This document shows positions 10,055 through 36,248 of a stretch of 64,000 bases of DNA, one piece after another. Both the position numbers and the translations under genes were made by a program. The DNA comes from Anaerolineae bacterium. GTDB taxonomy: Bacteria > Chloroflexota > Anaerolineae > DRVO01. The DNA lies in the NCBI GenBank assembly GCA_013178015.1, contig JABLXR010000007.1, forward strand, positions 37,682-101,681. The letters run 5' to 3'. The notes beneath the pieces are model-generated. The model ran no database searches. It was given only the letters and a program-made list of their open reading frames with translations, and had not been told where the DNA came from. Every line of letters starts with the position of its first letter. The first letter of the stretch is position 1.

Positions 10055-10234
10055 CTCTCGCACCTCCATCAAGTACTCGCTGCTCGGCCCGAAAGATTCC
10101 CCGTACAGCGGTGGACGGAGACCACACGCCACCACCTGTACCTCAGTATAGAGCCCACCGGTAGTGGTTGCTCGCCAATCTGCTGACAGCTTTGTGACAA
10201 GAGCAGGGCTCTTTCCTCTAGTCTGTTCCCGACC

Positions 10235-12791: not shown

Positions 12792-12912
12792 AGTCCACCT
12801 CCGGAACTCGTTACGCGGGCGCTCGCGCCCCTTATGCTGGTCGTCACTCCCACCTGCGCCTCAATGGTAGCGCGCTGGGCTCGCCATGGCTTGACAGTTC
12901 ACTGACAGGCTG

Positions 12913-17342: not shown

Positions 17343-17346
17343 CGTG

Positions 17347-18195
17347 CTAGCCTCCCCGTCCCATGGGGTACTGCTCTCCGAAGAAGGGAAAGAGCTCCCC
17401 TAGCGTCTCCTCGGTCACCTGACCGCCGTACTCCCCGAACTCGAACGACTCGGCGTACCGGACTCGAGCGCCCGCCTCGTCTCCATACAGGCGCTTCAGC
17501 AGGTCGCGACAGCGGTCGGCCTCCCGGGCCATCATGCCCAGACGTTGGGCCGCCATCCACTGGCGTCTTGCCTCCCGGCCTTCCGGCATCTGCTCCAGAG
17601 CGCCGTGATTGTAGGGCAGCCATTCGTAGAACTGGGACACGTGGCTGTCCAACATGTCTATCTTGTTCTCCACCACGTCATCAATGCTCACAGCCACGTC
17701 GGGCGTGTGGGGATAGGGTCGGGTGAAGCTGTCGCTCCAGTAAGCGATGACCGGGTTATACCGCAGATGAGGCGTAAGGGCCTGAACGTTAGGGATGGTC
17801 ACCGTGTAAGCAGCATCCTGCACCAGTTGGGAGGTGTAGCGGTGGTCGGGGTGGTAGTCGTTGGGCCGGTTGGTCACCACGAGATCGGGCCGGAACTCCC
17901 GGATCACGTTCACCACTACCCAACGGTTCTCCAGGGACGGGATCAGCTCGGCATCGTGGAGATCGAGCAACTGGTACTCGATGCCCGCGATCTGGGCCAC
18001 CCGCTGGGCCTCCTGATAGCGGCGTCGGGCCAGCGGCCCTCCTCCCTCCCGGTAGTGACCCCCGTCGCCGTTGGTCAGGGAGACGAACTTCACCTGGTGC
18101 CCCAACCGCACATACTTGGTGGCACAACCGCCGAACCGATAGTCGCAGTCGTCGGGATGGGCCCCGATGGCGAGCACCCGCAGGGTGTTCGGCAT
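17347..18195 (-). CDS. PIG-L/LmbE-family N-acetyl-glucosaminyl deacetylase
   Basis: MPNTLRVLAIGAHPDDCDYRFGG…HPDH motifs typical of the LmbE family. Start at the ATG 18193-18195 with a GGAGG SD. The 30-aa track extension is a translation of the heptad repeat and is rejected. Confidence 0.8.
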   Translation of the reverse strand: MPNTLRVLAIGAHPDDCDYRFGGCATKYVRLGHQVKFVSLTNGDGGHYREGGGPLARRRYQEAQRVAQIAGIEYQLLDLHDAELIPSLENRWVVVNVIREFRPDLVVTNRPNDYHPDHRYTSQLVQDAAYTVTIPNVQALTPHLRYNPVIAYWSDSFTRPYPHTPDVAVSIDDVVENKIDMLDSHVSQFYEWLPYNHGALEQMPEGREARRQWMAAQRLGMMAREADRCRDLLKRLYGDEAGARVRYAESFEFGEYGGQVTEETLGELFPFFGEQYPMGRGG

Positions 18196-18213
18196 GATTG
18201 CCTCCATGTTGCT

Positions 18214-19137
<924 letters not shown>

Positions 19138-19449
19138 TGCATCCCTCTCGTGCCTCAGAGTTGGCCCCGTTCGGCCCCTGTGGGTCGAGCTTAGCGCACT
19201 TGGGCCGCGACGCCCAACGCCTCAGGCCGCCCTCTGCGTTCAGTAGCCTGGCCCCGAGCGGTCCGACGCAGAAGCGAAAGCCGGGCGGGAGTCGTGCCGA
19301 CCCCGACCCGGCATGGGGGAAGAGACGCCGCGATGCGTCGTCTGCGATGCGTTGGCTAGGCCTTGCTCCTGTCAATGCAGTGGGACAGTAAAGCTGCCCT
19401 CTTCAGGCTGCGGGCGCCCCAAGTGAACTTCCTGCCCAGGGGCGCAACG

Positions 19450-20550
19450 TCAGGAGAGCTTCATCTCCCTTATCAGCTCCACGTAGCGCATGAAGGAGCG
19501 AAACGAGATGTCGGGCAGGATCATGTCGTCCACCGCTGGAATGTAGCCCCCCTGCTCCATCAGCCAGGGGACCTTCCCCATCACCTCCCGCTCCACCGCC
19601 TCGGGCCCGTCCATCAGCGCCTGGCGCGAGATGTTGCCATACAAGAGCACGTCGCGCCCGTACTCCCGCCGCAGCTTCGCCGCGTCCATCCCCGCCGCTA
19701 CCTCCAAGGGCCCGAACAGGTTGAAGCCCGTCTCCAACAGCACCGGGATCAGGGGCTCGATGTTGCCGCTGGTGTAGAACGAAAACACCTCCACCCCCTT
19801 GCCCCGCAGGTGCTCGATCACCCTCCCCACGTAGGGCTTCCAGAAGCGCCGGTACGTCTCCGGCCCGATCAGGCTGGAGGTCTTGTACGCCAACCCATCC
19901 TCGTTGAGCACCACGTAGTCTACCGGCACCCTCTCTACCACCGGCCCCCACAACGCTATGGTGAACTCGGCCCAAAAGTCGAAGATGTCGTGCACGAAGG
20001 CGGGTTCATCGTGAAGGGCGGCCAGGAACCTCTCCAACCCCAGCATGTAGCCGTTCTTGGGCCCCCGCCCCGGCCCCCACATCATGCTCAGCCCCACCGC
20101 ACTCCCGCCAGTGCGATAGGCCTCGAATAGCTCCGGCCCCCAACTCAGGGGCAGCCGCCTTACGTCGGCGGGGTCGTAGCGACGCTTCATCGCCTCCCAG
20201 TCTTCCCGCGTCTCCACCGACCCTTTGAGATACACATACACCGTGGGGGCCACCGTCTGAGCCTTGAGCCGGCGGACGGTGAAGCCAAACTCGTCCCTGT
20301 ACGTCGTCCACTCCTCGTCCGACGACAAGGTGCGCTGAACGAAGGCGGGGATGGGACCGGTGTGGATGGGAACGAAGGTGTTGCCGTCGAAGCCCACGTA
20401 CTCCCGGATGTCCCGGCCCCAGGGGAACCCCTCCGTGCACCAGCGCCGGACGGCCTGCTCAGTGATGCCCTCCAGGTCCCAAAGGGGAACCCGATCGGGC
20501 ATCTGGAACCGGGTGATGGCGCGGAAGCGCTCTCGTGAGGTCATGCTCAT
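19450..20550 (-). CDS. Uroporphyrinogen decarboxylase (URO-D) family protein, non-haem paralog in a sugar locus
   Basis: MSMTSRERFRAITRFQMPDRVPLWDL… is a URO-D/MtaA-like N-terminus. The start is chosen at the ATG 20548-20550 (GGGAGG upstream); the track ORF begins 9 codons earlier and lacks an SD. Confidence 0.7.
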   Translation of the reverse strand: MSMTSRERFRAITRFQMPDRVPLWDLEGITEQAVRRWCTEGFPWGRDIREYVGFDGNTFVPIHTGPIPAFVQRTLSSDEEWTTYRDEFGFTVRRLKAQTVAPTVYVYLKGSVETREDWEAMKRRYDPADVRRLPLSWGPELFEAYRTGGSAVGLSMMWGPGRGPKNGYMLGLERFLAALHDEPAFVHDIFDFWAEFTIALWGPVVERVPVDYVVLNEDGLAYKTSSLIGPETYRRFWKPYVGRVIEHLRGKGVEVFSFYTSGNIEPLIPVLLETGFNLFGPLEVAAGMDAAKLRREYGRDVLLYGNISRQALMDGPEAVEREVMGKVPWLMEQGGYIPAVDDMILPDISFRSFMRYVELIREMKLS

Positions 20551-20664
20551 TGGCTTGTCAGCCTCCCAAGGCGTCATTCACCGCGGGCGGGTACCGCTGC
20601 CTGGGATCGGTAGGGCAGGGCACCGCACCTGCGTGGTGCAAAGGGCGGACGCAGTGGTCCTCCC

Positions 20665-21795
20665 CTACCCCGCCAGACTGAGGTACCGGGCCAGGAAATC
20701 GAGGCTTTCGACTCCCCGCGCCACGTGGCCCCCGTCGTGCTCGAGATAGGCGATCCTATCCTCGATGCCCAGCCGGCGGTAGTGCTCGCGGGCATCCTCG
20801 TAAGCGGCGCGCGAGGCCTCGTACCACACCGCTCCGTCCTGCCGGCCGGTCTCGGCGGCGAAGGCGCGGGGGCAGATCAGGCTCACCACGTCGGAGTCAT
20901 CGAAGTACTTGAGCCAGCCGGCGAAGAACTTGTCTTCCTCGAAGGTCTTGACGTACGGGGTGCGAGGGTAGTCATAGTCAATCATCTTGCCGATGCGCCG
21001 CTGAAAGAAGGCCGAGGACACGCTCGCCTTGATGCGGGTGTCTACCGCGGGGAAGAAGAGAGCGCTTTGGCCACCCTGGCTCAACCCGTAGAACCCGATC
21101 CGATTGGGATCTACTTCGGGAAGGGTGGACACGTAGTCCAGCAGCCGGGAGGTGCACATGAACTCGGTGCCGATGAGGCGCTCGCCAATGAGGTAGGCCT
21201 TGCGGTAGAGCTGGGTACGGGCCCGGGCCCATTCCTGATCGCCCAGGGCAGGCACGTACCGGGCTCCTCCCTCGTCGGTGCCGAAGCCCCCAACCATATG
21301 CGGCGCCAGCACGACGAAGCCCCGCTCCGCCAGGCGGATGCCCATGCGGTGGTAGCTGTAGTCCGGCCTGATGGCATCCACCACGAAGCCGCAGGCCTCT
21401 TCTGGGGTGCCGCACAAGCCGTGCTGCGCCACCACCAGAGGGCGCGGGCCGGAGCCGTGAGGGATAAGGAACAGCGCATCCTCCCACACCTCCGGCAAGA
21501 CCTGCAGCCAGAGCCGTTTCAGGGAGAAGCGCTCGGTCTGGCCCAGGTCTTCCCACCGGGGTTGGGGGTCGCAATCGGGCTGGCCACCGTAGCCGATCAT
21601 GGCGGCGAAGCGGGCCCGCATGGGCTCCATAGAGCGCTCGTATTCGGGGATGCTGCCGTAGTGCCGGTCCCAGCGTTCCACCCGGGTGTCGAAGGCCTGG
21701 TGGCAGCGCCGGGTGAAGTAGGCGTCGAACCCCTCGTAGAGGGCCCGGCGCCGTTGGTCTATGTCGGCGTAGTCAATGATGGGATCGTCGGTCAT
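20665..21795 (-). CDS. Alpha/beta-hydrolase, acetyl-esterase-like (G-x-S-Q-G nucleophile elbow)
   Basis: GFYGLSQGGQ motif, as in CE7-type acetyl esterases and dienelactone hydrolase-like folds. An alternative start at 21867 is possible; the ATG at 21795 has a GGAG SD. Confidence 0.6.
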   Translation of the reverse strand: MTDDPIIDYADIDQRRRALYEGFDAYFTRRCHQAFDTRVERWDRHYGSIPEYERSMEPMRARFAAMIGYGGQPDCDPQPRWEDLGQTERFSLKRLWLQVLPEVWEDALFLIPHGSGPRPLVVAQHGLCGTPEEACGFVVDAIRPDYSYHRMGIRLAERGFVVLAPHMVGGFGTDEGGARYVPALGDQEWARARTQLYRKAYLIGERLIGTEFMCTSRLLDYVSTLPEVDPNRIGFYGLSQGGQSALFFPAVDTRIKASVSSAFFQRRIGKMIDYDYPRTPYVKTFEEDKFFAGWLKYFDDSDVVSLICPRAFAAETGRQDGAVWYEASRAAYEDAREHYRRLGIEDRIAYLEHDGGHVARGVESLDFLARYLSLAG

Positions 21796-21870
21796 GGGAA
21801 CTCCGTGGCGATCTAGAGCTGCTGCCCACCACCCCGGCTCAACAGGGGCGAAGCTGGCTTCGGGCAAAGG

Positions 21871-22935
21871 CTACTGGTATGAACCGTACTTCCTGACACA
21901 CTCCATCAGCCAGGTGTAGGCGGCGAAGCTTACCCCCGGAGGCACCGAGTGGTCTATGTGGTAGAGGTAGCCTCCCCCCTTCTTAGCATAGCCTACCTTG
22001 CTGCGGACCTCTTCCTCAATCGCGTCTCTGTCCCCTTGCGCCACTACGTCGGCGCTGATGTTCCCGAAGAAGGCGATCTCGTGTCCGTATCGCCTCCTGT
22101 ACTCCCGGACGTCGTTGCCCGCCCGAGCCTCCAGCGGCTGAACACAGTCCACACCAGCCTCGATCAGCAACGGTATCAGCTCCGAGACATCGCCGTCGCA
22201 GTGGTAGATCACCTTGAGGCCCAGCGCGTGGCAGCGATCACAGATCCGACAAAGACGCGGCAACACGTGCCTCCGGTAGACTCGGGGCGAGAAGAGCATC
22301 CCATTGCGGTAGCACAGGTCACTGAAGAACCAAAGCGCATCAACTGCGATTTCCTGCCTGGTGACCTCGTCCAGCATCCCCAGCACGAACTGCGTCACCG
22401 TCTCCAGCACGTCGTCGAGAAAGCCCGGCTGCTCCAGCATGGCTGGCAGAGCGGTCTCCGCGCCCAGGGTGCGGATGAAGAACCAGGCCGGCTCAACCGG
22501 TGAGATCACCACATACTCGCCTCGCGCCTGGGCTGCCGCCGCCGCCTCCCGCGCCCCTGGTGACAACCGGTCCGGTCCTGGTTGCAGGCGGTGCCGGACC
22601 TTCCGCCACTGGTCGAAGGTTGCGATGCGCCACCCGATCTCCGAGGGCGGGGCGTAGGAGTCCTTCCAAGTCTTCATGAGGACGCCGTCGGCGTTCCACT
22701 CCAGCCGGTAGGCCTCGCCTTCTTCCTGAATGGCGGTGGGAAGCTGCAGAGTAGAGTCAATGCCCACCGTGTGGATCCGGTCCAGGCCGAAGTAGTCCCG
22801 CGGGTCGGTTCCCACAGGGAGTCCCTCCTGCTCCCAGCGACGGATGGTGTCCGGCCAGTAAGAGATGTCCACCATGGGCACGCAATCACCCTCTTGATGA
22901 CTCAAGGCTGTGATGATGCGCTCTCGGCCAGTCAT
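21871..22935 (-). CDS. Uroporphyrinogen decarboxylase (URO-D) family protein, second paralog
   Basis: MTGRERIITALSHQEGDCVPMVDISYW… N-terminus typical of the URO-D family. Paralogous to 19450..20550. Confidence 0.75.
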   Translation of the reverse strand: MTGRERIITALSHQEGDCVPMVDISYWPDTIRRWEQEGLPVGTDPRDYFGLDRIHTVGIDSTLQLPTAIQEEGEAYRLEWNADGVLMKTWKDSYAPPSEIGWRIATFDQWRKVRHRLQPGPDRLSPGAREAAAAAQARGEYVVISPVEPAWFFIRTLGAETALPAMLEQPGFLDDVLETVTQFVLGMLDEVTRQEIAVDALWFFSDLCYRNGMLFSPRVYRRHVLPRLCRICDRCHALGLKVIYHCDGDVSELIPLLIEAGVDCVQPLEARAGNDVREYRRRYGHEIAFFGNISADVVAQGDRDAIEEEVRSKVGYAKKGGGYLYHIDHSVPPGVSFAAYTWLMECVRKYGSYQ

Positions 22936-23028
22936 GATCCTGATCCCACAGGTCTTGGAGTGCAGAAACTGGGGGCAGACAGCCTGCTGCCTGCCCCCTG
23001 CGTCAGAGGGTGCCTTAAGACGACGCAG

Positions 23029-24405
23029 CTAGCTGTGCTTGGCGTTCCAGGCGTCTAGCACCTCTTGAGCAAACTGGTTGACCTCATCGAGGAACGCCTG
23101 GATGGGCATCTCCACCTCACCGGACAGGATAGAGGGCCACAGTTCGTTATAGCGCTCCAGCATCGGGTTCACTTCAGGATGGTTCATCGTAGGCACGCCG
23201 AAGTCGAGTGCCTCCAAGTAGCGCTCAATGTGCTTCGGGGGGAGATCACGGCGAAGGAACCTATCGCTCTCCGCAATCTCCCGTACTGCCGGGATCGTGG
23301 CCGCATCCAGGGCTGCCTGCTCTAACTGGGTAGTGCAGAACCAGAGGGTGAAGTCCCAGGCCTCCTGCAGATGCTGGGTTCCACTTATGATGGCCATCTC
23401 CTCAGTGTAGATCGAAGAGTAGCGCCACTTCTTGCCGTTGGCCTCCAGGTACGGCACCGGGGCGATGTCCCACTCGAAGTCGGTGACATCGTTGCGGAAG
23501 GTCGGCACCATCCAGATGTAACCCCAGTGGTTGCCGATTAGGTTGGAGGCGAAGTAGGGCATCATGCCCATCTCGCTGGTGACCTCGGGTGGGGCTGCGA
23601 TCTCGTACTTGCGCACCAGGTCATAGTACATCTGCATGCTTGCGACCCGCTCCGGGCTGTTGAGGTCCATCTCCAACCACTGGTCATTCTTGGATCCCAT
23701 GTTCCCGCCCATGGCCACCAACCAGTGCATCGAGTAGCCCTGGTCCAGCGTAGCAGCGAACTTCTTGTTGGCCGGGTCGGTCATGCTCGGGCCCCAAGTT
23801 ATGAGGTCGCCGAAGGTCCAGTCCCCCGTCTCCGCCGGTGGCTCGACTCCTGCCTCTGCGTAGATGTCGAGGTTGTTCGCCACCACGCAGGAAAGCAGCC
23901 CGAGAGGCATGGCGCTCAGCTTCCCGTCCCAAGTCAGACCAGAGATGGCGACGTCCCAGAAGATGCTCTTGTCCACGTTGTTCTGAACGAACAGTTCGTC
24001 CAGAGGCATGAACACGCCTTCCACCGCCCACTTGGGCCAGCCGTAGCCATGCCAGGCGACATCGGGCGGCGTGCCACCAGCAATGGCCACCGTGAGCTTC
24101 TCATCCGGGTTGGTGTTGTACATGGGCTCGATCTCGATGTGGGGAAACGCCTCCATGTACGAAGCGAAGGCCGTCTCCCCCCACCGAGTCTTGGCCGGCG
24201 TGTACTGCGGCCATTCCACCACTAGCTTGATCTTCTCCCCCTCAGCGGCAGGCTCAGCCTGAGCGGGAGCTTCGGTTGCGGCCGCCGCTGGCTCACCCGC
24301 TTGTGGCGCAGGTGAGGCTCCAGCGCAAGCGGCCAGTAGGACCCCCGCACTCACCAGAGCAGAGCCCTTCAGTAACGAACGGCGGCTAATCCCCTTGCTC
24401 TCCAT
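23029..24405 (-). CDS. Extracellular solute-binding lipoprotein of a sugar ABC transporter
   Basis: MESKGISRRSLLKGSALVSAGVLLAACAG has a lipobox. ATG at 24403-24405 with an AGGAGG SD; the track ORF is extended by 20 codons. Confidence 0.8.
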   Translation of the reverse strand: MESKGISRRSLLKGSALVSAGVLLAACAGASPAPQAGEPAAAATEAPAQAEPAAEGEKIKLVVEWPQYTPAKTRWGETAFASYMEAFPHIEIEPMYNTNPDEKLTVAIAGGTPPDVAWHGYGWPKWAVEGVFMPLDELFVQNNVDKSIFWDVAISGLTWDGKLSAMPLGLLSCVVANNLDIYAEAGVEPPAETGDWTFGDLITWGPSMTDPANKKFAATLDQGYSMHWLVAMGGNMGSKNDQWLEMDLNSPERVASMQMYYDLVRKYEIAAPPEVTSEMGMMPYFASNLIGNHWGYIWMVPTFRNDVTDFEWDIAPVPYLEANGKKWRYSSIYTEEMAIISGTQHLQEAWDFTLWFCTTQLEQAALDAATIPAVREIAESDRFLRRDLPPKHIERYLEALDFGVPTMNHPEVNPMLERYNELWPSILSGEVEMPIQAFLDEVNQFAQEVLDAWNAKHS

Positions 24406-24486
24406 CTCTCTGCCTCCTCTAGTCACGCGACGGTTATCCGCTTTGAGCCCCGCGGCCCGGTGCACAGCCGGTGGCGCAAGGCTTGC

Positions 24487-25389
24487 CTAACCCTTGATGC
24501 CCGTCATCACCAGCCCCTCGATGAAGTAACGCTGGAACAGGAAGAAGATGATGAGCGGTGCCACCGCCACCATCAGGGTGGCAGCCATGAGGTAGTTCCA
24601 CTCGGTGGTATACGGTCCCTTGAACCGGTAGAGACCGAGGGCCAGGGTGAAGTTCTTCTGAGAGTGCAAGTAGATCAAGGGGCCAAAGAAGTCGTTCCAG
24701 TGGCCGATGAACAGGAAGATGGCCACTGCCCCCAGCGCCGGCCGGGCTAGAGGCATCAGGATGTTCCAGTAGATGCGGAAGTTGCTGCAGCCATCTATTC
24801 GAGCCGCATCATCCAAGTCGTAGGGTATGGTCATTAGGTACTGCCGGAGCAGGAAGATGTAGAAGGCGCCTCCGCCCAGGAACGAAGGGACAATCAATGG
24901 CTTCAGGGTGTTGATCCATCCCAGGTGCCTGAAGATTATGTAGACTGGGATCATAGTGACATACCCGGGCAGCATCATGGTCGCCAGCACGATCATGAAC
25001 CAGATATCTCGGCCCTTGAACCTCAGGCGGGCGAAGGCGTAAGCCGCCATTGACGAAGACAGCATCGCACCGATGATGGTAGTCGTTGTGATCAGAAGCG
25101 AGTTCTTCAGCAGGACCGGGAAGTGCATTTGCTCGAACGCGGTAGCGTAGTTGTGCCACTGAGGCTCTGAAGGGAACCACTTGGGCGGATAGGCGAAGAC
25201 CTCTCCTCCGGTCTTTAGCGACGACATCGCCATCCAGAAGAGGGGCAGCAGGTAGAAGAACCCACCTGCGCTCAGAGTAGCCACCACTGCCAGCCGCTGC
25301 AATCGCCGGGCGGTTCTCATGCCTACTCCAGCTGCACTACGGCCCTCGATTCCCGCCGGTCTCGCTGACGCCCGGGATGCTGAGGTCAC
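24487..25389 (-). CDS. Sugar ABC transporter permease (MalG-like)
   Basis: EAA loop DLDDAARIDGCSNFRIYWNILMP. GTG start directly after the upstream stop (translational coupling) with AGGAGGGG upstream; an alternative ATG lies at 25320. Confidence 0.8.
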   Translation of the reverse strand: MTSASRASARPAGIEGRSAAGVGMRTARRLQRLAVVATLSAGGFFYLLPLFWMAMSSLKTGGEVFAYPPKWFPSEPQWHNYATAFEQMHFPVLLKNSLLITTTTIIGAMLSSSMAAYAFARLRFKGRDIWFMIVLATMMLPGYVTMIPVYIIFRHLGWINTLKPLIVPSFLGGGAFYIFLLRQYLMTIPYDLDDAARIDGCSNFRIYWNILMPLARPALGAVAIFLFIGHWNDFFGPLIYLHSQKNFTLALGLYRFKGPYTTEWNYLMAATLMVAVAPLIIFFLFQRYFIEGLVMTGIKG

Positions 25390-26337
25390 CTAGCCCCTCC
25401 TGCCGCCGCGCAGTGACGCCTCATAGTGCACCCACATGGGCGAGCTCTGGAACACCATGAGCGTCAGGACCAGGATGATGACGAAGAGGACCCAAGCCAT
25501 AGCCGACGCGTACCCCATTCTGAAGTACTGAAAAGCGTTCCTGTACAGGAGCAGAACATAGAAGAGAGTGGCGTTGTTGGGCCCTCCGCCGGTCATGATG
25601 AAGGACTGAGTGAAGGTCTGCAGCGCCCCTATGATTCCCATCACCAGGCTGAAGAAGATGGTCGGGGTCAGCTGCGGAATGGTCACAAACCGGAACTCCT
25701 GCAGCGTGTTGGCACCGTCAATCTTAGCTGATTCGTACAGATGAGCAGGGATGTTCTGCAGGCCCGCCAGGAAGATGATAACGCTGCCGCCTACGCCCCA
25801 GAGGCTCATGAGCACCAGCGCCCACAGTGCCCACCTTTGGCTGGTGAGCCAGCGAACCGGCTGTATGCCCACCAGCTCCAGGAGCCAGTTGAACAGGCCA
25901 AAGTTGGCGCTGAAGAGCAGCATCCAGATCAGCGACACGGCCACTCCGCCCAGAATGGTGGGCAGGTAGTACACCGTCCGGAAGGCCAGTATGCCCCGGA
26001 TGCGGACATTCAGCAGGAGAGCAAGAAGTATGGCGAGGCTCATTCCGAGCGGAATGCTCGAGACGCTGTAGACGAAGGTGACTCTGAGCGCTGTGGGAAA
26101 CAGCCGGTCCGAAAGCAGCTCCCGGTAGTTGGCCAGGCCGACCCACGTGGCGCCGCTCAGCAGCGGGTAGTCGGTCAGGCTGTAGTACAGCGACGCGACC
26201 ATAGGCCCCAGAGTCAGCCCAAAGAACCCGATCAGCCACGGTAGGATGAACAGGTAGCCGTCCAGGTTCTCCCGATCGCTGGAGCTCAAGCGGAACCACT
26301 TGCGCTCAGTGGACACCTCCGCTACTGCCAAAGACAC
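25390..26337 (-). CDS. Sugar ABC transporter permease (MalF/UgpA-like)
   Basis: EAA loop LYESAKIDGANTLQEFRFVTIP and 6 TM segments. GTG start. Confidence 0.8.
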   Translation of the reverse strand: MSLAVAEVSTERKWFRLSSSDRENLDGYLFILPWLIGFFGLTLGPMVASLYYSLTDYPLLSGATWVGLANYRELLSDRLFPTALRVTFVYSVSSIPLGMSLAILLALLLNVRIRGILAFRTVYYLPTILGGVAVSLIWMLLFSANFGLFNWLLELVGIQPVRWLTSQRWALWALVLMSLWGVGGSVIIFLAGLQNIPAHLYESAKIDGANTLQEFRFVTIPQLTPTIFFSLVMGIIGALQTFTQSFIMTGGGPNNATLFYVLLLYRNAFQYFRMGYASAMAWVLFVIILVLTLMVFQSSPMWVHYEASLRGGRRG

Positions 26338-26636
26338 ACCCTCCGTGGTGGCGTAGCCCTCGAGCAGCTACACCTCGACACATTCACCGGCCCTCAGAGG
26401 CCGGCCGCCATAGGGACCTGCAAGCTACCGATCCCTATGGATTCCCGCCGCCTATGTCAGCAGCTATAATGATGACGCATGAGGAGCGCAAGAGGAATGT
26501 CATCGCTCTGCCATCTGGCTGCCAACTCTCAGCTTCGGCTATCCGCCGGGGTCGGCCATCCGGCCTGTCTTCCCGCAGAGGCCGAGCAGGCCCGCCCCAC
26601 CCCGGCTTGGCAGACCGCTGGGAGCATCACGGCCGC

Positions 26637-27809
26637 ATGAACGTGGACACGGACACCGCTCGCTGGCTACTGGCCCACCTCAACGACAACCCGGCCCTCA
26701 GTAGTACCGAGTTGCTGCCTGGCCTGCCCGGCCTGCGGGAAGCCCAGCCCCTGAGCCGGGCCGATGCCCTCCGGGCCATAGTGCTGGACTGTATAGAGTT
26801 CCTGCGCCCTCCCCGAGGGGGCACCATCCGCAGCCCTGAGGCCCGGAGCTACGCCGTCCTCTGGCTCCGCTACGTGGAGGGAATGACAGTCGAGGAGGTG
26901 GGTGAGGAGATCAACCTCAGCGAGCGCCAGGTTCACCGAGAGCTCAGGGCAGCCGAAGCCAAGTTCGCCGACGTGCTATCCACCCACCTGGCCACGATCG
27001 CCCAGACCAGCAATGCCGCCGGACCGGGTAGTCGAGAGACTCAAGAGATAAGCGTGGCCGTCCGGCCGGCGCAGTTCGGGCTCGCCCGGGCCATACAGGC
27101 CACCATTGGCACCATTGAGCCCCTGGCCAAGAGCCTGGGGCGCACGGTGTCCCTCGACGTCGACCTGACCGACGATCACCTGTTCGCCGACGAGGGGGTT
27201 CTGCGCCAGTTGCTCATCCAGAGCTTGAGTCTGGTGTTGCAGAGTTCCGCCGAGGGTTGTGTACGGATTGTTGTGTCCGGCGCGAGCGAGAGGATGGCTG
27301 AGGTCAAGATCGGCCCGGTCCCGCTCGCAGGCATTGTCAGCCCCCAGGCAGTTGAGGGCCTCCGGAAGCTGGCAACCGCCCTTAACCTGGAGCTATCAAT
27401 CCGAGAGGACAGGACGTCCCTGGGCATCGCCCTCAAAGTGCCTCTGCACCAACCCAAAACAGTGATGGTGGTGGAGGACAGCACGGTGGCGGTGGAGTTG
27501 TACCGGCGCTACCTGGAGCCGGGCGGATTCTGGCGCGTGGTGGGCGTGTCCGAACCCAGGTTGGCATACGACATGGCCCGAAACCTTCAGCCGTCCGTTA
27601 TAGTCCTGGATCTGCTCATGCCAGGCACCGATGGGTGGACTATCCTTAACGTCCTGCGGGCAAGAGAAGACACGGCGGACATACCGGTGATAGTCTGTTC
27701 CGTATTCGAGGACCCACTGCTGGCAGAGGCTCTGGGAGCTAAGGCGCACTTGCGCAAGCCAGTGTCCCAGGTCCAGCTGCTGTCCGCCGTGAACCGCTGG
27801 GCTCGCTGA
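26637..27809 (+). CDS. Atypical response regulator, paralog of 12913..14145 (sigma70-r4-like HTH, kinase-like middle, C-terminal receiver)
   Basis: HTH-like segment SYAVLWLRYVEGMTVEEVGEEINLSERQVHRELRAAE. Kinase-N-box-like segment VLRQLLIQSLSLVLQSSAEGCVRIVVSG. Receiver VMVVEDS…VLDLLMP…LRKP. The track ORF starts at 26454, but a perfect TATAAT at 26465-26470 and alignment with the paralog favour the ATG at 26637. Confidence 0.7.
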   Translation: MNVDTDTARWLLAHLNDNPALSSTELLPGLPGLREAQPLSRADALRAIVLDCIEFLRPPRGGTIRSPEARSYAVLWLRYVEGMTVEEVGEEINLSERQVHRELRAAEAKFADVLSTHLATIAQTSNAAGPGSRETQEISVAVRPAQFGLARAIQATIGTIEPLAKSLGRTVSLDVDLTDDHLFADEGVLRQLLIQSLSLVLQSSAEGCVRIVVSGASERMAEVKIGPVPLAGIVSPQAVEGLRKLATALNLELSIREDRTSLGIALKVPLHQPKTVMVVEDSTVAVELYRRYLEPGGFWRVVGVSEPRLAYDMARNLQPSVIVLDLLMPGTDGWTILNVLRAREDTADIPVIVCSVFEDPLLAEALGAKAHLRKPVSQVQLLSAVNRWAR

Positions 27810-29940
27810 CCACGTACTCGGCCCTGGCTCCCTCGAGAATCGCTCGCAGCACCGAAAGCGCTTCGGCATCTCGCATGCCGCCGCGCTTGCTCACCTGCAC
27901 CCAGGAGATCCGTGCCTCGTCTCGAAGCCCTGTGGCTCCAGTCACCCCCACGATGGGAATCCCGGCAAAGGCCTCCTCCTGCCTGATAGCTCGAGCCACC
28001 TCCGCGCCGCTCATCGGCTCCATCACCATATCCAGCAGGACCACGTCTGCCGGAGCTGCCCTGAGCTTCTCTAGAGCCTCCGCCCCCTCGTAGGCCCAGC
28101 GAACGTCGAAATGGGTCTCGGATGACAGCAGCATGCGCCGCACGAGTTGCACGAACCCGCGGTCGTCATCCACCACCAGGACCGAGCCCGACTGCACGAA
28201 GCGACGGAGCACCGAAAGGAGCCGCTCCCGGGTCACCGGCTTCCCCAGGAGGGCGTCGAAGCATTCGTCGGCTCCCATGACCGACGGCGCGGGCAGCGTC
28301 GTTGCGATGATCGGGACCCCCGGCGGGAGCGACTCGGCCAGCCGCTCGGCCTCCGTCGCCACCTGAGGCAGAGGGCCTTCCACAAGGAGGGCTCTGGGGT
28401 GATGCCGGTCCAGCAGTTCCGCCACCGATTCCGGACGCGAGGCCGGGATCACGTCGAATCCATCCAGGTGGCGGGCGAGGAAACCATAAGCCTGCTCATG
28501 GCCGCCGAGGCTGACAGCCAGCACCGGGATGGAGTGGCTGCCCGGCACCGACGCGCTCAGGTGGCCCGCCAGCTTGGACACCTGCTTGCCCTGAAGGGGT
28601 ATGGTGAAGTGGAACTGCGAGCCGGAGCCCATGCGGCTCTCAGCCCAGATCCTGCCACCATGCAGCTGCACGAATCGGCGAGCGATCGCCAGCCCCAACC
28701 CTTTCCCGCCCCGCTCGCCCGGCCCCTGTGCCCGGTAGAACTCCCGGAAGATCAGCTCAAGCTCATGAGCCGGTATCCCCACTCCCGAGTCGGACACGGT
28801 CACCAGCACGTCCTCGTCCCGTGCCACGGCCGAGACCCTCACCGTGCCGGCGTCGGTGAAGCGAATGGCATTGGTCAGCAGGTTTAGCAGCACCTGCCGC
28901 ATGCGAGTGCGGTCCAGATACAGCGGCGGCAGGCCCGGACCCAGGTCGAGCTCGAGAGAGATGGCCTTGCCGTCCACCAGCCTCTCAGCTAGCGACACCG
29001 TCTCCTGTATGATCGCGGCAAGGTCGGACAACTCCCGCTTCACCGGCATGCGCAGCGCGTCTACCCGCGCCAACTCCAGGATGTCATCCACCAGCTCGCT
29101 GATGTAGCAGGCACTCCGCCATATCTCGGCCACGTCCCGGCGTAGCATGGGTGGCCACTCGATGGCGCCGTAGGTGGCAGAGGCTCGGTGCATGATCTCT
29201 GCGAACCCTAGGATAATGTTGAGGGGAGTGCGCAACTCGTGGCTGACGTTGGCGGCGAACTCCTCCTTCAGACGCCGCGCCTCCTCCGCCTCCTGGTGGG
29301 CCACTGCCAACTCGCGGTTGCTTCTCTCGAGGAGCTGGTACGCCACGTGCAGGGCAGCCAGGGCCTTATTCAGCTCCCCTTGCCGGTCGCGCAACTGCTC
29401 CGCCAGGTAGGTGGCCTCGGCGCTCCTCAGCCAAGACCAGTCGAGCACGCTGTCGCGAGGAGACAGAACGGCCCAGACCGCCAGGTAGACCAGCAGCACC
29501 TGGGCCCCGAGCAGCAGGCCCGTCCCCGCCAGATCCGCGACAGCGAGCAGCAATACCAGCACCGTCAGCCCCAGCCCGGCTGGAAGCCCGAGAAGCCCAG
29601 CAGCGGCCATTCCCGGCAGGACCAGCAGGGGCGCCACCGCCTCTCGCGGCAAGAGCGTGGGAGACAGCACAGCCGTGGCTAGGCAGCCTGAGAGCACGAG
29701 AGCCGCGGACACCGTGGGCTTACGTTCGGCCCAGTGCCGCGCGACGAAAAAAGTCGGGATGAGCGCCGACGATAGGGCGACGGACTGGAGGTCGGGCCAG
29801 TCCTCGGCCAAGAGCCCCCACCACCAGAACAGGCAGGCGACCATGAGAATCCCCGCCAGTCCACTCGCCGTCCGCGAGCGGATCTCCCTCTGATTCACCT
29901 CGCGGATCTGCCTAACCTGCAGCCGGCTGTAAGCACCCAT
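27739..29940 (-). CDS. Hybrid sensor histidine kinase, paralog of 14072..16255
   Basis: H-box FAANVSHELRTPLNIILGF. ATP-binding N/G boxes (LLNLLTNAIRFT, DSGVGIP, GKGLGLAI). Pseudo-receiver with Glu at the phospho-site (ALLVEGP), followed by a canonical receiver (LVVDDD…VVLLDMVMEP). Start taken at the ATG 29938-29940 with a GGGGGAG SD; the track's TTG at 30000 has no SD. 71-nt convergent overlap with the regulator. Confidence 0.8.
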   Translation of the reverse strand: MGAYSRLQVRQIREVNQREIRSRTASGLAGILMVACLFWWWGLLAEDWPDLQSVALSSALIPTFFVARHWAERKPTVSAALVLSGCLATAVLSPTLLPREAVAPLLVLPGMAAAGLLGLPAGLGLTVLVLLLAVADLAGTGLLLGAQVLLVYLAVWAVLSPRDSVLDWSWLRSAEATYLAEQLRDRQGELNKALAALHVAYQLLERSNRELAVAHQEAEEARRLKEEFAANVSHELRTPLNIILGFAEIMHRASATYGAIEWPPMLRRDVAEIWRSACYISELVDDILELARVDALRMPVKRELSDLAAIIQETVSLAERLVDGKAISLELDLGPGLPPLYLDRTRMRQVLLNLLTNAIRFTDAGTVRVSAVARDEDVLVTVSDSGVGIPAHELELIFREFYRAQGPGERGGKGLGLAIARRFVQLHGGRIWAESRMGSGSQFHFTIPLQGKQVSKLAGHLSASVPGSHSIPVLAVSLGGHEQAYGFLARHLDGFDVIPASRPESVAELLDRHHPRALLVEGPLPQVATEAERLAESLPPGVPIIATTLPAPSVMGADECFDALLGKPVTRERLLSVLRRFVQSGSVLVVDDDRGFVQLVRRMLLSSETHFDVRWAYEGAEALEKLRAAPADVVLLDMVMEPMSGAEVARAIRQEEAFAGIPIVGVTGATGLRDEARISWVQVSKRGGMRDAEALSVLRAILEGARAEYVVSEPSGSRRTAAGPGTLACASAP

Positions 29941-30145
29941 GAGAGTGACTCCCCCACCACGCGACAACAGATACTCGATATAGGTCACCGAAATGGCCAA
30001 GAGACACCGGAGGCAGGCGCCAGGACCGCAGCCCTGAAGCGGGCACGCCCCAAAGCGGGGACAACTACCGGGGCGTTGCCGCTCGCCCGGTCGGTTCCTT
30101 CCTCAGCTCCAGCCTTCCACGCTGCTCGTCGTACCCAGCCGCATG

Positions 30146-31210
30146 CTACCCCTTCACCCCGGTGACCACCACTCCCTGGATGAAGATGCGCTGGGCGAAG
30201 AAGAACAGCAGTATGCAGGGCAGCACTGTCACCAGAGACGCTGCCATCAGCAAGTCGTAGCGAGTGGCCCGGAAGGCGTTGAAGCTCTGCAGGCCCAGCG
30301 CTATGGTGAAGTTGCGCTGGTGGTGCAAATAGATTAGGGGGCTGAAGAAGTCGTTGTAGGCCCACATGAAGTGAAAGATCGCCAGGGTGGCGATGGCCGG
30401 CTTAGCCAGCGGCAGCAGAATACGAAACAGAATGCCCAGGGTGCCACAACCGTCCATCTTGGCGGCGTCGTCCAGTTCCAGGGGTATGGTCATGAAGTAC
30501 TGCCGCAGCAGGAAGACGTCGTAGGCCCCGGCGAAGAACGACGGCACTATCAGTGGCTTGAGCGTGTCCACCCAACCCAGCTTGCTGAACAGAATGTAGG
30601 TGGGGATCAGCGTCACTTGGCTGGGCAGCATCGTGGTGGAGAGCAGCAGGAGGAAGAGCAACCCCAGCCCGGGGGCGCGAAAGCGAGAGAACCCGTACGC
30701 CACCAGCGATGTCGAGATCAACATCCCAGCCATGGAGCCAAACACCACCTTGGCCGTGTTGATGGCGTAGGTGCCGAAAGGCACCACCGTCATGGCCTCT
30801 ACGTAGTTGTCCCAGCGAAGCCGGACCCGCTCCACCGGCTTGGCCCGGTTCACGTCGGCCTCCACCGTGGCGGACAGGTCATCCGGATCGGCGAACGTCC
30901 CCACCCGCTGCGCCTTCGCCACCATCACCAGGCGGCGCGTCTCCCCGTCCAGCTGAACCTCGTACAGCGGGTAGACCTGGCCCCCGACTTCCAGCTTCAC
31001 CTGCTCGGTCGGGATCCACACCGGCGGGAACAGGTCTATCTGGGCCAGAGGCTTGAGGGAGGAGGAGATCATCCACACCAGGGGAAACACCATGGCCACC
31101 GCGCCCAGGCTCAAGGCGACCAACGCCAGTGCCTGCCCCAGCGCCTCCCCCCGGAGCCGGAGTGTCCTCGTCCGCCCGGCCGCTCTGCCTGCGGTTCTCG
31201 CTACGGCCAT
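30146..31210 (-). CDS. Sugar ABC transporter permease (MalG-like, with a long periplasmic loop)
   Basis: EAA loop ELDDAAKMDGCGTLGILFRILLP. Start at the ATG 31208-31210, forming an ATGA overlap with the upstream permease's stop. Confidence 0.8.
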   Translation of the reverse strand: MAVARTAGRAAGRTRTLRLRGEALGQALALVALSLGAVAMVFPLVWMISSSLKPLAQIDLFPPVWIPTEQVKLEVGGQVYPLYEVQLDGETRRLVMVAKAQRVGTFADPDDLSATVEADVNRAKPVERVRLRWDNYVEAMTVVPFGTYAINTAKVVFGSMAGMLISTSLVAYGFSRFRAPGLGLLFLLLLSTTMLPSQVTLIPTYILFSKLGWVDTLKPLIVPSFFAGAYDVFLLRQYFMTIPLELDDAAKMDGCGTLGILFRILLPLAKPAIATLAIFHFMWAYNDFFSPLIYLHHQRNFTIALGLQSFNAFRATRYDLLMAASLVTVLPCILLFFFAQRIFIQGVVVTGVKG

Positions 31211-32136
31211 CAGGCCCTGCCTCCTCTCAATTGGCCCTCGTAGTAGACCCACGCAGTCGAGCTGCGAAATATGAGAAGGGTGAAGAACAGAATGATGACG
31301 AACAGCACCCAGGCCAGCGCCGCAGCGTATCCCATGCGGAAGTAGCGAAAGGCGTTGTTGTACAGGTGCAGGTTGTAGAACAGGGTGGCGTTGTTAGGCC
31401 CCCCTTGGGTCATGACGTAGGCGTTGGTGAAGTACTGGAAAGTGCCGATCGTCCCCATCACCAGGTTGAAGAACACGACCGGCGAGATCATGGGCAGAGT
31501 GACGTAGCGGAGACGCTGGAGGGCCGTGGCTCCATCCACCTTGGCAGCGTCGTACAGCGCTGTAGGCACCGACTGCAGCGCCGCCAGGTACAGCACCATG
31601 CCCCCACCCGCCCCCCACAGGCTCATGATGGCCAGCGAGGGCAGGGCCCAGTTGGGGTCAGCCAGCCAGCCCGGCCCCTTGATCCCCACAAGCCTGAGGG
31701 CCCAGTTGAGCACACCGAAACGTGGGTTGAGCACGTACTGCCACAAGACGGCCACAGCCACGCCGGAGATAACCGAAGGCAGGTAGTAGATGGCCCGCCA
31801 CACCGACAGCCCCGGCACCTTCAGGTTCAGGAGCAGGGCTACCGCCAACCCCACCGCCAGCCCTGCGGGCAGGGACAGCACCGCATAGGTGAAGGTGACC
31901 CGTAGGGACTGCCAGAAAAGAGGGTCGAAGGTGAAGATGGCGCGGTAGTTGCCCACCCCGCGCCATGACACCGGGCTGACCACGTTGTAGTCCGTGAATG
32001 AAAGGACAAACGAAGCCACCATCGGCCCGGCCGTCCACACCAGGAAGCCGATGACCCAGGGGCTGACCAGGACATAGGCCGAAAGAGCTTCCCGCCGGGC
32101 GGGCGAGGTCCTGCGCCCCCACGCAGTGCTCCTCAC
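31210..32136 (-). CDS. Sugar ABC transporter permease (MalF/UgpA-like)
   Basis: EAA loop LYDAAKVDGATALQRLRYVTLP. GTG start. Confidence 0.8.
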   Translation of the reverse strand: MRSTAWGRRTSPARREALSAYVLVSPWVIGFLVWTAGPMVASFVLSFTDYNVVSPVSWRGVGNYRAIFTFDPLFWQSLRVTFTYAVLSLPAGLAVGLAVALLLNLKVPGLSVWRAIYYLPSVISGVAVAVLWQYVLNPRFGVLNWALRLVGIKGPGWLADPNWALPSLAIMSLWGAGGGMVLYLAALQSVPTALYDAAKVDGATALQRLRYVTLPMISPVVFFNLVMGTIGTFQYFTNAYVMTQGGPNNATLFYNLHLYNNAFRYFRMGYAAALAWVLFVIILFFTLLIFRSSTAWVYYEGQLRGGRA

Positions 32137-32200
32137 TTATGCAACCTCGCCTGTTAGGATAGGCCCCGGAGGCACACCTGCTCCCCCGGGGCCGTCGCGC

Positions 32201-33631
32201 TTAGCCTTGCTCCGCCCAGTAGTCGTCCAGATAGCCCTGGACGGTCGCCTGGACCTCGTCCAGCACGATCTGAGCGTCCTTCTGCTCCCCGGTCAGGATC
32301 CGGTCATAGCCGGCCCAGAACGCGTCCCATACCTCGCCGTACCGGGGTATGTACGACTCATGGTTGGGAACGTCAATATAGTTCAGCGAGTCAAAGAACA
32401 CCTGCAGTTGCAGGTTCGGGAACCTGGCGGCCATCTCTTCCTTGTACCTCTCCTGGAGAGAAGCCCGAGGCGGGAGCGCCCCCCAGGTGAGATCCAGGCG
32501 GAGCATCTGATCCGGCTCCAGCATCCACTTCGCCACCTCCCAGGCCGCGTCGAGGTGGGCGAACTGGTTGCAGATGAGGAAACCGTCTACGTCGCACTGG
32601 GCCAGAGTGATCCCTAGGGGGCTGGCTGGGATCGCTCCCACGTTCCAGTGGAACGGCAGTTCCTCCATCTCCCCCATCCGCCAGGAGTGGCAGTGATCGA
32701 TCCCCAGTTTGCCCGTGTTGAACCCTGGCGCCGATGCCTGAGACTGCTGCGCCGAAGGCATGATGTACCACTTCCAGATGGCGTCACTGGCCCACTGCAG
32801 CCGATCCACCCAGGCAGGAGCATTGAAGTACAGAGTACGGAAGTCTTCGCTCCAGCCCATGTTCTCCGCACCCCAGGCTACGGCCAGTGCGTTGAAACCC
32901 AGGCCGCAGTCGACTTCGTCATAGCCCCATTGGACCTGATCTGCCGGGTCGAAGCCGTCCTCAGTGGCTCGTCTGCCGCTGCCATCCTGGCTGAGCTGTC
33001 TCGCCATTTCCACCAGGGCGTCGTACGTCCAGCCCTCAGCCTCCCACTCCTGGGTAGGATAGTCCACCTCCGCTGCATCGAACAGGTCCTCATTGTAGTA
33101 GAGGACGCTGGGATACACGCCCATAACTATCCCATACATCACGCCCTGGTATTTGCCTATCTCGGGAATGAGATCACCGAAGTCACTGAGGTCGTACTGA
33201 TCGCGCTCCACGTACGGCCCGATGTCCAGGTTAGTGTCGCGGAAGCGGCCTACCTGCTCCACACCCGAAGGCATGTTGATGGCCGGTGGAGTACCCGCGG
33301 CTAGCATGGCGGCCCACTTGGTGCGGCTCTCGTCGTGAGGCACGTACATATGCTCGATCTTGATGTCGGTATGCGACGCGTTCCACTCCGCTGCCAGGCG
33401 GTTCTGCGCCTCCTGCTGCTCGGGTGCCGTTCCCGTGCCCATGCCCACGAATATGGTTACCGTGACCGCCTCACCTGCGGCGGCCGGGGCCTCTGCCGCG
33501 GCCGGGGCAGCCGTCTCCTCCCGGGGGACCGGTGTCCCGGTGGCCCCGGCACAGGCGGCGGCGGCAGTCGCGGCGGCAACCGCGGCAGAGAGCTGCAGAA
33601 CTCGACGGCGAGTCATTCTGGTCCGGTGCAT
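32201..33631 (-). CDS. Extracellular solute-binding lipoprotein of a sugar ABC transporter (twin-arginine signal)
   Basis: MHRTRMTRRRVLQLSAAVAAATAAAAC… with a lipobox. ATG with an AGAGGAGGG SD. Divergent from DegT#1 across a 298-bp region. Confidence 0.8.
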   Translation of the reverse strand: MHRTRMTRRRVLQLSAAVAAATAAAACAGATGTPVPREETAAPAAAEAPAAAGEAVTVTIFVGMGTGTAPEQQEAQNRLAAEWNASHTDIKIEHMYVPHDESRTKWAAMLAAGTPPAINMPSGVEQVGRFRDTNLDIGPYVERDQYDLSDFGDLIPEIGKYQGVMYGIVMGVYPSVLYYNEDLFDAAEVDYPTQEWEAEGWTYDALVEMARQLSQDGSGRRATEDGFDPADQVQWGYDEVDCGLGFNALAVAWGAENMGWSEDFRTLYFNAPAWVDRLQWASDAIWKWYIMPSAQQSQASAPGFNTGKLGIDHCHSWRMGEMEELPFHWNVGAIPASPLGITLAQCDVDGFLICNQFAHLDAAWEVAKWMLEPDQMLRLDLTWGALPPRASLQERYKEEMAARFPNLQLQVFFDSLNYIDVPNHESYIPRYGEVWDAFWAGYDRILTGEQKDAQIVLDEVQATVQGYLDDYWAEQG

Positions 33632-33929
33632 TGCGTCCCTCCTCTTTCCGATCCAAGACCAGGAACCAGCTACGCCCGACCTACGTCAAATCAGCATGCG
33701 GACGGGTACGACCGTCTTCGGCCTCATCACCTCCCTTCGACCAGAGCCCCAGGCACGAACCTCAATACGAGTATGGCGACCCATCAGACGCCTGTCAACG
33801 TCCTTTTCACGCCGCCAGAGGTCAGCTAGTATGGTTGTATCGCGTCGCCAGAGGCCCTTCGTCGCTAGGGCGACATCTGCCTCCCGCCCGGCGCACATGC
33901 ATGACCGCAGCGTGCAGAGGAGTGGTGCC

Positions 33930-35180: not shown

Positions 35181-35326
35181 CCCTCGACTCGGCGCGATGC
35201 CCACGGCTGAGGCCACCGATGCCCAGGTCCGGCAGCGATCGTCGGGCCCCACATCGCGCTCCGCCCCAGTGGCCGCGGGTGCGCCACAGCAGGCTCGATG
35301 GAGATGAGCACGGGAGGCCAAGCCCC

Positions 35327-36007: not shown

Positions 36008-36155
36008 GACACCCGGCCCACCCATTCCGTCCCATGCTCGTCCTCCCCCTCCGGTCCCGGCCGCCTGTGAGCCGCGCCGCATCTTACCCTCGGAAGCGTT
36101 ACATAGCTGGGGCTCGATGCACCTGATGCGTGCGCCCGTCCGTCTGCAATACCCC

Positions 36156-36184
36156 TTGACGTGGGGTCTGAAAGCGAGTATACT
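36156..36184 (+). promoter_or_regulatory. Sigma70-type promoter: TTGACG, 17-nt spacer, TATACT
   Basis: Near-consensus -35 (36156-36161) and -10 (36179-36184) hexamers with a 17-nt spacer, 38-65 nt upstream of the candidate ROK start codons. This is a conspicuous AT-rich signal in a GC-rich background. Confidence 0.5.
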
Positions 36185-36248
36185 CACGCTACCGTTGCTA
36201 ACACAGGAGTTGGGAAGTCCCGTGGCGTCGCGTCACCAGATCCCAGCT

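Follow-up and report, generated by a model that had tools for sequence, protein, structure and literature searches.

We analysed a window of 64,000 nucleotides (64 kb, 65% G+C) from an Anaerolineae metagenome-assembled genome (MAG; GenBank assembly GCA_013178015.1, contig JABLXR010000007.1, positions 37,682 to 101,681), concentrating on a two-gene regulatory cassette, hereafter cassette 2, that pairs a response regulator with a hybrid histidine kinase and is a candidate switch for adjoining sugar-uptake genes. All coordinates refer to the window. The gene for regulator 2 (26637..27809, plus strand) encodes 390 aa (NPV07077.1), and that for kinase 2 (27739..29940, minus strand) encodes 733 aa (NPV07078.1). 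Each rests on an open reading frame (ORF), a gene call and an exact protein match, and the gene call, made independently on the identical contig, returned the same two genes at the same lengths. A longer regulator ORF of 451 aa starting at 26454 was rejected, since homologs, the gene call and the NCBI record all begin at 26637. NCBI labels both proteins just 'response regulator'; NPV07078.1 is a hybrid kinase under-annotated by that label, which also conceals the pairing of regulator and kinase. The two genes converge, and their 3' ends overlap by 71 bp (27739..27809, from the ORF coordinates). Convergent ends that abut or overlap recur across most related loci, and antisense transcription or transcriptional interference between the partners is possible.

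A paralogous cassette, cassette 1, lies at 12964..16255, with its regulator at 12964..14145 on the plus strand (NPV07066.1) and its kinase at 14072..16255 on the minus strand, the 3' overlap here being 74 bp (14072-14145). According to tblastn, the window contains exactly these two cassettes. Protein identity is 36% between the two regulators (E 4e-53) and 42% between the two kinases (E 3e-141), which bears out the proposal, made in an initial annotation of this DNA, that the two-gene architecture repeats with clearly paralogous sequences. That annotation had also asked whether the cassettes might be nearly identical as DNA. They are not: just 657 bp of the kinase core can be aligned, at 63% identity. 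Judged by their sequences, cassettes 1 and 2 are old, diverged paralogs. The chance that they represent a recent duplication or an assembly repeat is practically negligible, given the low identities at both the protein and DNA level, the different operons that flank the two cassettes, and the greater similarity of cassette 2 to its own orthologs than to cassette 1; nothing was found in the comparison of the two cassettes to favour such an origin.

The N-terminal helical domain of regulator 2 (aa 1-126; 26637..27014, plus strand) comprises a short extension, bearing the family motif 'ALxHLYD' (AHLND in regulator 2), and then a helix-turn-helix resembling region 4 of sigma factors (sigma4). The Pfam models Sigma70_r4_2, Sigma70_r4 and Sigma70_ECF match aa 73-109 (nt 26853-26963), barely over cut-off, and a family profile of the N-terminal domain matches SigF region 4 (E 2e-5). 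Modelled alone with AlphaFold2 (AF2), the domain reached a pLDDT of 93.8. The structural neighbours of this model were all sigma region 4, the best being SigL sigma4 and sigmaE region 4 on -35 DNA, with TM scores of 0.66-0.79 on the target and weak Foldseek E-values of 0.08-0.3. The recognition helix reads RQVHRELR, and R97 and R101 are invariant across the 29 family members aligned; no histidine is invariant in the same 29 sequences. At the C-terminus stands a receiver (aa 274-390; 27456..27806, plus strand; Pfam Response_reg, 59.8 bits, full length) with Asp325 at 27609-27611, and residues D281, D325, S355 and K374 are invariant in 29/29 family members.

Between the sigma4-like match and the receiver, some 165 residues have no Pfam hit. 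The family profile, AF2 and Foldseek place here a pseudo-kinase catalytic and ATP-binding (CA) domain of the Bergerat fold (aa 145-269; 27069..27443, plus strand), modelled with high AF2 confidence as an alpha/beta domain that Foldseek matches to chains containing the dimerisation and histidine phosphotransfer (DHp) and CA domains of kinases. The N-box is kept as LRQLLIQSLSLVLQ with both Asn residues lost, LRQvLxNLxxNAxK having become LRQxLxQxLSxAxQ, and the G1, F and G2 boxes and the ATP lid are missing. Kinase CA domains are matched by the profile over the N-box half only (ShkA, 2.5e-8; HK853, 7e-8; RetS, 2e-7), and the domain aligns with the CA of its own partner kinase at E 5e-4. An AlphaFold model of the whole regulator, built with 29 homologs, resolves a helical domain (1-126), a disordered linker, the alpha/beta domain (145-269) and the receiver (274-390), with a pLDDT of 89.8 within domains. 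As modelled, then, the regulator is a sigma4-like helix-turn-helix joined to a pseudo-CA domain without ATP-binding residues and to an intact receiver. Its layout recalls the end of a hybrid kinase in which a DNA-binding domain has taken the place of sensor and DHp. Against the regulator, no NCBIfam model scores above cut-off; neither Pfam nor NCBIfam has a dedicated model for it, and source annotations call family members only 'response regulator' or 'CheY-like'. The layout is apparently undescribed, no description of it having been found in a limited literature search.

Kinase 2, read by its domains, is a HisKA-type hybrid kinase in which a membrane-embedded input region is followed by DHp, CA, pseudo-receiver and receiver, all encoded on the minus strand. 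The input region (aa 1-165; 29446..29940) has about 5-6 hydrophobic helices with short loops in a hydropathy scan, which revealed no periplasmic domain, and has no Pfam domain. It is the most diverged part between the kinase paralogs: the comparison of sensor regions proposed in the initial annotation gives 31% identity between kinase 2 and kinase 1, as against 55% for the kinase core. That core is HK853-like (E 4e-42), with a HisKA (DHp) domain at 29056..29268 (Pfam HisKA, 60.3 bits), whose phospho-acceptor His234 lies in SHELRTP (29239-29241), and an intact HATPase_c catalytic domain at 28591..28914 (Pfam, 104.7 bits). The next segment (REC1, aa 471-584; 28189..28530) receives no Pfam call. 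A profile built from the aligned segment of 17 family members out of related loci matches solved receiver domains end to end, including PrrA (E 2.8e-9), RpfC and RcsC. In kinase 2, Glu521 (28378-28380, within ALLVEGP at 28372-28392) aligns to the phospho-Asp column, where kinase 1 has Asn; the family as a whole has E, N, G, D or S at this position, and the Lys-Pro of beta5 is invariant. From the matches to solved receivers and the variable phospho-site column it follows that the Glu-bearing pseudo-receiver first noticed in the raw translation is real. A linker of about 5 residues leads to the second receiver (REC2, aa 586-705; 27826..28185), which Pfam Response_reg matches at 60.3 bits, the match ending at profile position 81 of 111. 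The family alignment shows that REC2 retains the acidic pocket (DDD), Asp637 (28030-28032) and the Thr, and that its beta5 Lys is only partly conserved.

The regulator belongs to a large family. Its N-terminal domain, used as query in an exhaustive profile search, matched 4,507 cluster representatives (E<=1e-3), 2,924 of them with E<=1e-10; among the top 150, most are 385-445 aa long, and the layout was the same in 10/10 tested. A word-indexed search with the same domain gave fragments only. Homologs retrieved by word-indexed search include about 50 full-length relatives, many of them nameless; every one with a taxon name comes from an Anaerolineae MAG. A scan of 185,579 species genomes with an 11-sequence alignment yielded at least about 21 full-length relatives, the listed loci of what follows, and among the matches listed these come only from Anaerolineae/Chloroflexota MAGs. 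The NCBI accession series NPV07066, 07077, 07889 and 08651 suggests at least four copies in the source MAG, and another MAG has two. The numbers of clusters and copies, together with the restriction to Chloroflexota among the matches listed, agree with the lineage-specific expansion that had been postulated from the two cassettes of the window.

Regulator and kinase were scored as neighbours in all 21 listed loci with flanking sequence. The pair is convergent in 17 of the 21 and co-directional in two, and in one the kinase lies a few kb away; at the remaining locus, where a kinase was sought, the contig shows only the match of the regulator's own pseudo-CA and receiver. This adjacency is retained in relatives down to about 27% regulator identity, and it is also seen in four further loci (L083, L084, L087 and L088). 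CUT1-type permease or binding-protein genes occur in 17/21 listed loci, directly divergent from the regulator in about 14, and ABC components likewise adjoin the regulators of L083, L084, L086 and L087. The association with CUT1 transporters, put forward along with the earlier suggestion of a module dedicated to carbohydrate loci, is upheld by these counts. Locus L013 (246-7154) has two complete cassettes back to back on a single contig, with the two kinases between the two regulators; the second regulator is divergent from an ABC operon. In L086, the closest relative, whose regulator is 70% identical, the kinase position (2865-3844) is occupied by a 148-aa ORF and a ParE toxin pair, and insertion of toxin-antitoxin genes may have broken the kinase gene.

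Regulator 2 is divergent from a minus-strand operon (19450..26337), predicted to be its target. From 26337 downwards, ORFs and Pfam show two permeases, an SBP_bac_1 binding protein with a twin-arginine translocation (TAT) signal, a URO-D-like protein, an AXE1/glucuronoyl-esterase-like protein and another URO-D-like protein, just the divergence from a sugar-utilisation operon that had been read from the raw sequence. With an SBP_bac_1 binding protein and two BPD_transp_1 permeases, the importer is of the CUT1 type; no ATPase gene was found in the operon. A second CUT1-type ABC operon (30146..33631) lies on the other side of the cassette, upstream of and co-directional with kinase 2. Locus L002, which holds the ortholog of cassette 2, keeps the left operon in the same gene order and is missing the right-hand importer; the left operon is therefore the conserved partner. 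The placement of cassette 2 'next to a second ABC importer' accordingly needs qualification: there is one on each side, that on the left being the conserved partner and that on the right merely upstream of the kinase. The two URO-D-like genes flank the AXE1/dienelactone-hydrolase/glucuronoyl-esterase-like gene at 19450-22935, a trio conserved in L002, and there are hints here of a methylated or esterified sugar acid as substrate of the target operon.

The regions between regulator and operon contain a candidate operator. When four orthologous intergenic regions were aligned, they shared one strongly conserved block only, consisting of a TATAAT-like box followed by GGAATGTCAT...CTGNCA.CTGNNTGNCA, and within it lie three pentamers with an 11-bp period. 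In cassette 2 the array reads TGTCA-N6-TGCCA-N6-TGCCA (26498..26524, plus strand) and in cassette 1 TGACA-N6-TGACA-N6-TGACA (12892..12918, plus strand). These are the only two occurrences of three TGNCA pentamers with this period in the window, each just upstream of a regulator, and in 355 kb (the window plus related loci) the pattern appears upstream of regulators only. The pair TGACA-N6-TGACA is observed three times in the window against 0.11 expected. Its third occurrence (10184-10199) belongs to another array, CGCCA-N6-TGACA-N6-TGACA (10173..10199, plus strand), upstream of a binding-protein gene (8675..10135, minus strand), which suggests that regulator 1 has a second target promoter inside the neighbouring locus. 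No pentamer arrays were found in the region of the right-hand ABC operon (30146-37400). A TGTCA-N6-TGCCA pair at 60855 sits within a 764-aa ORF and was treated as chance.

Array architecture of this kind recurs in at least 16 related loci. In 12/23 homologous loci, three NGNCA pentamers lie in the 300 bp before the regulator and in its orientation, and when both strands of about 280 kb of locus DNA were scanned, about 20 of the 22 hits fell in regulator-upstream regions. More distant clades use GGACA or GGCCA; whichever pentamer a locus has (TGNCA, GGACA or GGCCA), it repeats only upstream of regulators. As a test, two loci were fetched afterwards (L087 and L088), and each contains one array of three TGCCA pentamers, 111 and 132 bp upstream of the regulator, respectively. 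The pentamer class is matched by residue 100, the fourth residue of RQxxR in the recognition helix: this is H or Y in about 11 loci with T-first pentamers and R or Q in eight loci with G-first pentamers, without exception. Two other candidate elements in the intergenic region were discarded. A perfect 9-bp inverted repeat, CCATAGGGA-N15-TCCCTATGG (26408-26440), occurs in the predicted leader of the ABC operon; as an operator it was set aside, not being conserved in three orthologous intergenic regions. An RNA element in the conserved block was also rejected, with no Rfam match anywhere in the window and a leader fold z-score of -0.96.

The arrays have a constant relationship to AT-rich hexamers. 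On the side away from the regulator, a -10-like hexamer accompanies 18/18 arrays at 10-34 nt (20-34 nt in 17), which is notable in a genome of such G+C content. In cassette 2, the element (26463..26472), conserved in orthologs, can be read as TATAAT on the plus strand (26463-26468) or as CATCAT on the minus strand (26472->26467), the latter 23 nt from the array. The minus-strand boxes of the other two arrays in the window, TACCAT for cassette 1 (12868->12863) and TATACT for the 10173 array (10150->10145), are each 22 nt from their arrays. With L002, L083, L086, L087 and L088 included, the spacer on the operon strand is 22-23 nt in 8/8 TGNCA-type sites; at nine other sites it is 31-34 nt, about one helical turn longer. 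A scan for sigma70 promoters over 26250-30250 found nothing. The geometry predicts that the pentamers lie at roughly -37, -48 and -59 (the array at about -35 to -62) of an operon-facing promoter without a -35 element. The coincidence of the cassette 1 array with a sigma70-like regulator promoter and the plus-strand TATAAT upstream of the cassette 2 array point to autoregulation as well.

Taken together, we consider it fairly probable that cassette 2 represents a large, unnamed Anaerolineae family of cassettes controlling adjoining sugar-uptake and utilisation operons, in which the regulator binds the pentamers and activates the divergent operon. A substrate-linked signal would switch the kinase on, sensed within the membrane, possibly via the adjacent ABC permeases, or else through the pseudo-receiver as in ShkA. 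The phosphoryl group would then reach Asp325 of the regulator by one of two routes: straight from His234, in which case the receiver of the kinase would have a regulatory role or serve as a sink, or by way of an unlinked histidine phosphotransfer (HPt) protein. Phosphorylated regulators would occupy the three pentamers at 26498-26524 head-to-tail, 22-23 bp upstream of the -10-like box, an arrangement like that of class II activators, or of PhoB on the pho box. The most likely output would be activation of the divergent ABC/URO-D/esterase operon with simultaneous autoregulation of the regulator gene. Paralogs might be insulated from one another partly by pentamer sequence, His or Tyr at position 100 specifying T-first and Arg or Gln specifying G-first pentamers. 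Candidate roles for the pseudo-CA domain are oligomerisation, docking to the kinase and ligand binding.

Several observations weigh against this model. We infer DNA binding, the route of phosphotransfer, the direction of regulation and the signal alike. Hybrid kinases normally require an HPt protein, and none of the gene-called neighbourhoods, to which the search was limited, has an annotated HPt (PF01627) gene. About one third of the distant loci have degenerate arrays or none, and the covariation of residue 100 with the pentamers is confounded by phylogeny, the motif classes following clades. The pTM of the whole-regulator model, 0.53, means that the interdomain arrangement is not confident. 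The -10-like boxes are AT-rich and often readable on either strand. If the box of cassette 2 is read on the plus strand, the regulator's own promoter would precede the array, an order suggestive of repression. The cassette 1 array, for its part, falls on a plus-strand, sigma70-like promoter of the regulator gene (TTGACA-18-GACAAT).

The same proteins and operator could serve mainly for repression, with the regulator placed over its own promoter or immediately past it and keeping the divergent promoter region blocked until released by the signal. We regard this as a real but minor possibility. The overlap at cassette 1 just described would suit it, as would the plus-strand TATAAT or TATTAT box that precedes the array by 27 nt in cassette 2, L086 and L002; with transcription of the regulator from that box, the array would span about +17 to +50. 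Yet at the 12892 and 10173 arrays and in L022 the -10-like box is readable on the operon strand only, the operon-strand spacer is constant at 22-23 nt where plus-strand alternatives are absent or variable, and the 10173 site has no regulator gene beside it. Activation and repression by one regulator can coexist. It is unlikely, in our estimation, that the sigma4-like domain goes further and, under the control of phosphorylation, replaces the part of the housekeeping sigma factor that reads the -35 element, at promoters with a -10 box and no -35 box. The proximal pentamer, at about -37, does resemble the core of TTGACA; the regulator would then supply promoter recognition, and perhaps a contact to the flap of RNA polymerase, which are beyond the reach of sigma region 4 at promoters of this kind, with the pseudo-CA domain as an extra ligand or oligomerisation input. 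If this were true, the paralog-specific pentamers would amount to a private '-35 code' for each sugar locus.

The pairing and the DNA-binding role are themselves open to challenge. Quite unlikely, we think, is that adjacent kinase and regulator are not cognate, the kinase feeding an HPt relay to some other regulator, the regulator being phosphorylated otherwise, and the convergent arrangement reflecting linkage only. The two genes are indeed convergent and not co-operonic, the hybrid kinase has no HPt gene nearby, and in L086 a regulator persists without an intact adjoining kinase. Set against this are the adjacency preserved at such low regulator identity across the listed loci, the retention of all catalytic residues in the regulator's receiver, and the fact that each cassette has its own diverged kinase. 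By domain criteria, the regulator and kinase form a two-component system, and a presumed phosphotransfer between the partners has the support of their conserved adjacency. Very unlikely indeed is a regulator that does not bind DNA and works as a PhyR-like partner switch, its sigma-like domain being freed on phosphorylation to capture an anti-sigma factor. The gross order, a sigma-like N-terminus and a C-terminal receiver, is that of PhyR, PhyR structures appear low in the fold-search list, and there is a weak NCBIfam PhyR hit. That hit (NF006623), however, is confined to the receiver and, at 34 bits, falls far short of the cut-off of 240; no sigma2-like part was detected in the regulator by Pfam, the family profile or fold search, and no NepR- or EcfG-like genes occur in the gene-called neighbourhoods. 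The invariance of recognition-helix residues Arg97 and Arg101, and the covariation of the cis-element with that helix, also argue for DNA binding.

Members of the Anaerolineae, most of them uncultured, abound in sediments, hot springs and wastewater sludge. The cassette family appears to be a multi-copy, locus-specific sugar switch of this class. The predicted operator and its covariation with residue 100 are directly testable and would allow regulons to be predicted from metagenomes. The value of the finding is that a large family, so far uncharacterised, comes with an operator code concrete enough to be tested. Some other features were recorded in passing. Beyond the right-hand ABC operon, up to 37400, are DegT-type aminotransferase genes and a ROK-family gene. 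At 18215-18261 and 18277-18329, two heptamer tandem arrays, (CGTGATA)x6.7 and (ACGTATC)x7.6, are inverted and about 15 bp apart, together making a long imperfect palindrome. They lie at the junction of the ORFs 17347..18285 (minus strand) and 18268..19194 (plus strand), overlapping both N-termini, and the site is probably an intergenic region. Just past the orthologous cassette in L002, at 15542-21161, is a type I-C-like set of CRISPR-Cas genes (Cas2, Cas1, Cas4, Cas7, Csd1, Cas5d and Cas3).

Among known systems, ShkA of Caulobacter crescentus (PDB 6QRJ) shares with kinase 2 the order DHp, CA, pseudo-receiver, receiver, and ShkA is also the top structural match of the regulator model and the top profile match of the pseudo-CA domain. 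In Caulobacter, the ShkA pseudo-receiver binds cyclic di-GMP and frees the true receiver, and the signal travels via the HPt protein ShpA (PMC6969517, PMC12632262). There the signal continues through ShpA to TacA, whereas the neighbourhoods of the present cassettes have no HPt gene. Unlike the soluble ShkA, kinase 2 has a membrane-embedded N-terminus; sequence similarity between the two is confined to DHp-CA, the REC1 profile aligns to REC2 of ShkA, and the REC1-REC2 linker of kinase 2 appears too short for a separate DDR tether as in ShkA. The resemblance, on this comparison, is one of architecture and not of family. Of the pair that the initial annotation called unusual, then, the regulator deserves the word, and the cytoplasmic layout of the kinase has a precedent.

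The regulator shares with PhyR, the alphaproteobacterial anti-anti-sigma factor, a sigma-derived N-terminus and a C-terminal receiver. PhyR, however, has sigma2-like and sigma4-like parts, has no pseudo-CA domain and binds NepR, whereas regulator 2 has sigma4 only, plus a pseudo-CA domain; PhyR is also encoded beside nepR and ecfG, neither of which is found in the annotated neighbourhoods here. Regulators of the PhoB/OmpR type bind head-to-tail at the pho box, to tandem 11-bp direct repeats that cover the -35 region of a promoter lacking a -35 element. The predicted three-pentamer array, with its 11-bp period over the -35 region, is of like design. The predicted differences are a sigma region 4-like domain in place of a winged helix, a reversed domain order and three repeats with a 5-bp core. 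NarL/FixJ regulators carry a LuxR-type helix-turn-helix, the fold of which is broadly in one class with that of sigma region 4. In these the receiver is N-terminal, the helix-turn-helix C-terminal and a pseudo-CA domain absent, whereas regulator 2 has the reverse order and no Pfam GerE match.

In their proposed role, the cassettes resemble dedicated sensors that are encoded beside the individual carbohydrate uptake loci under their control and occur as many paralogs per genome, such as the hybrid two-component systems of Bacteroides, YesM/YesN beside CUT1 importers in Firmicutes, and UhpB/UhpC, the kinase UhpB being likewise embedded in the membrane and relying on a transporter-like partner for sensing. 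In the Bacteroides systems, one polypeptide combines a large periplasmic sensor, a kinase, a receiver and an AraC-type helix-turn-helix; here there are two proteins, no periplasmic domain and a helix-turn-helix of the sigma4 type. The PhyR, NarL/FixJ and Bacteroides hybrid systems each have a defining feature that the cassette does not show. YesN is a receiver joined to an AraC domain, and homology of the cassette to any of these systems is limited to generic kinase and receiver domains. The initial annotation had called the module analogous to hybrid two-component systems but differently built. The likeness in role to these sugar sensors would support the analogy; as to build, the unusual component is the regulator, and the cytoplasmic layout of the kinase is that of ShkA.

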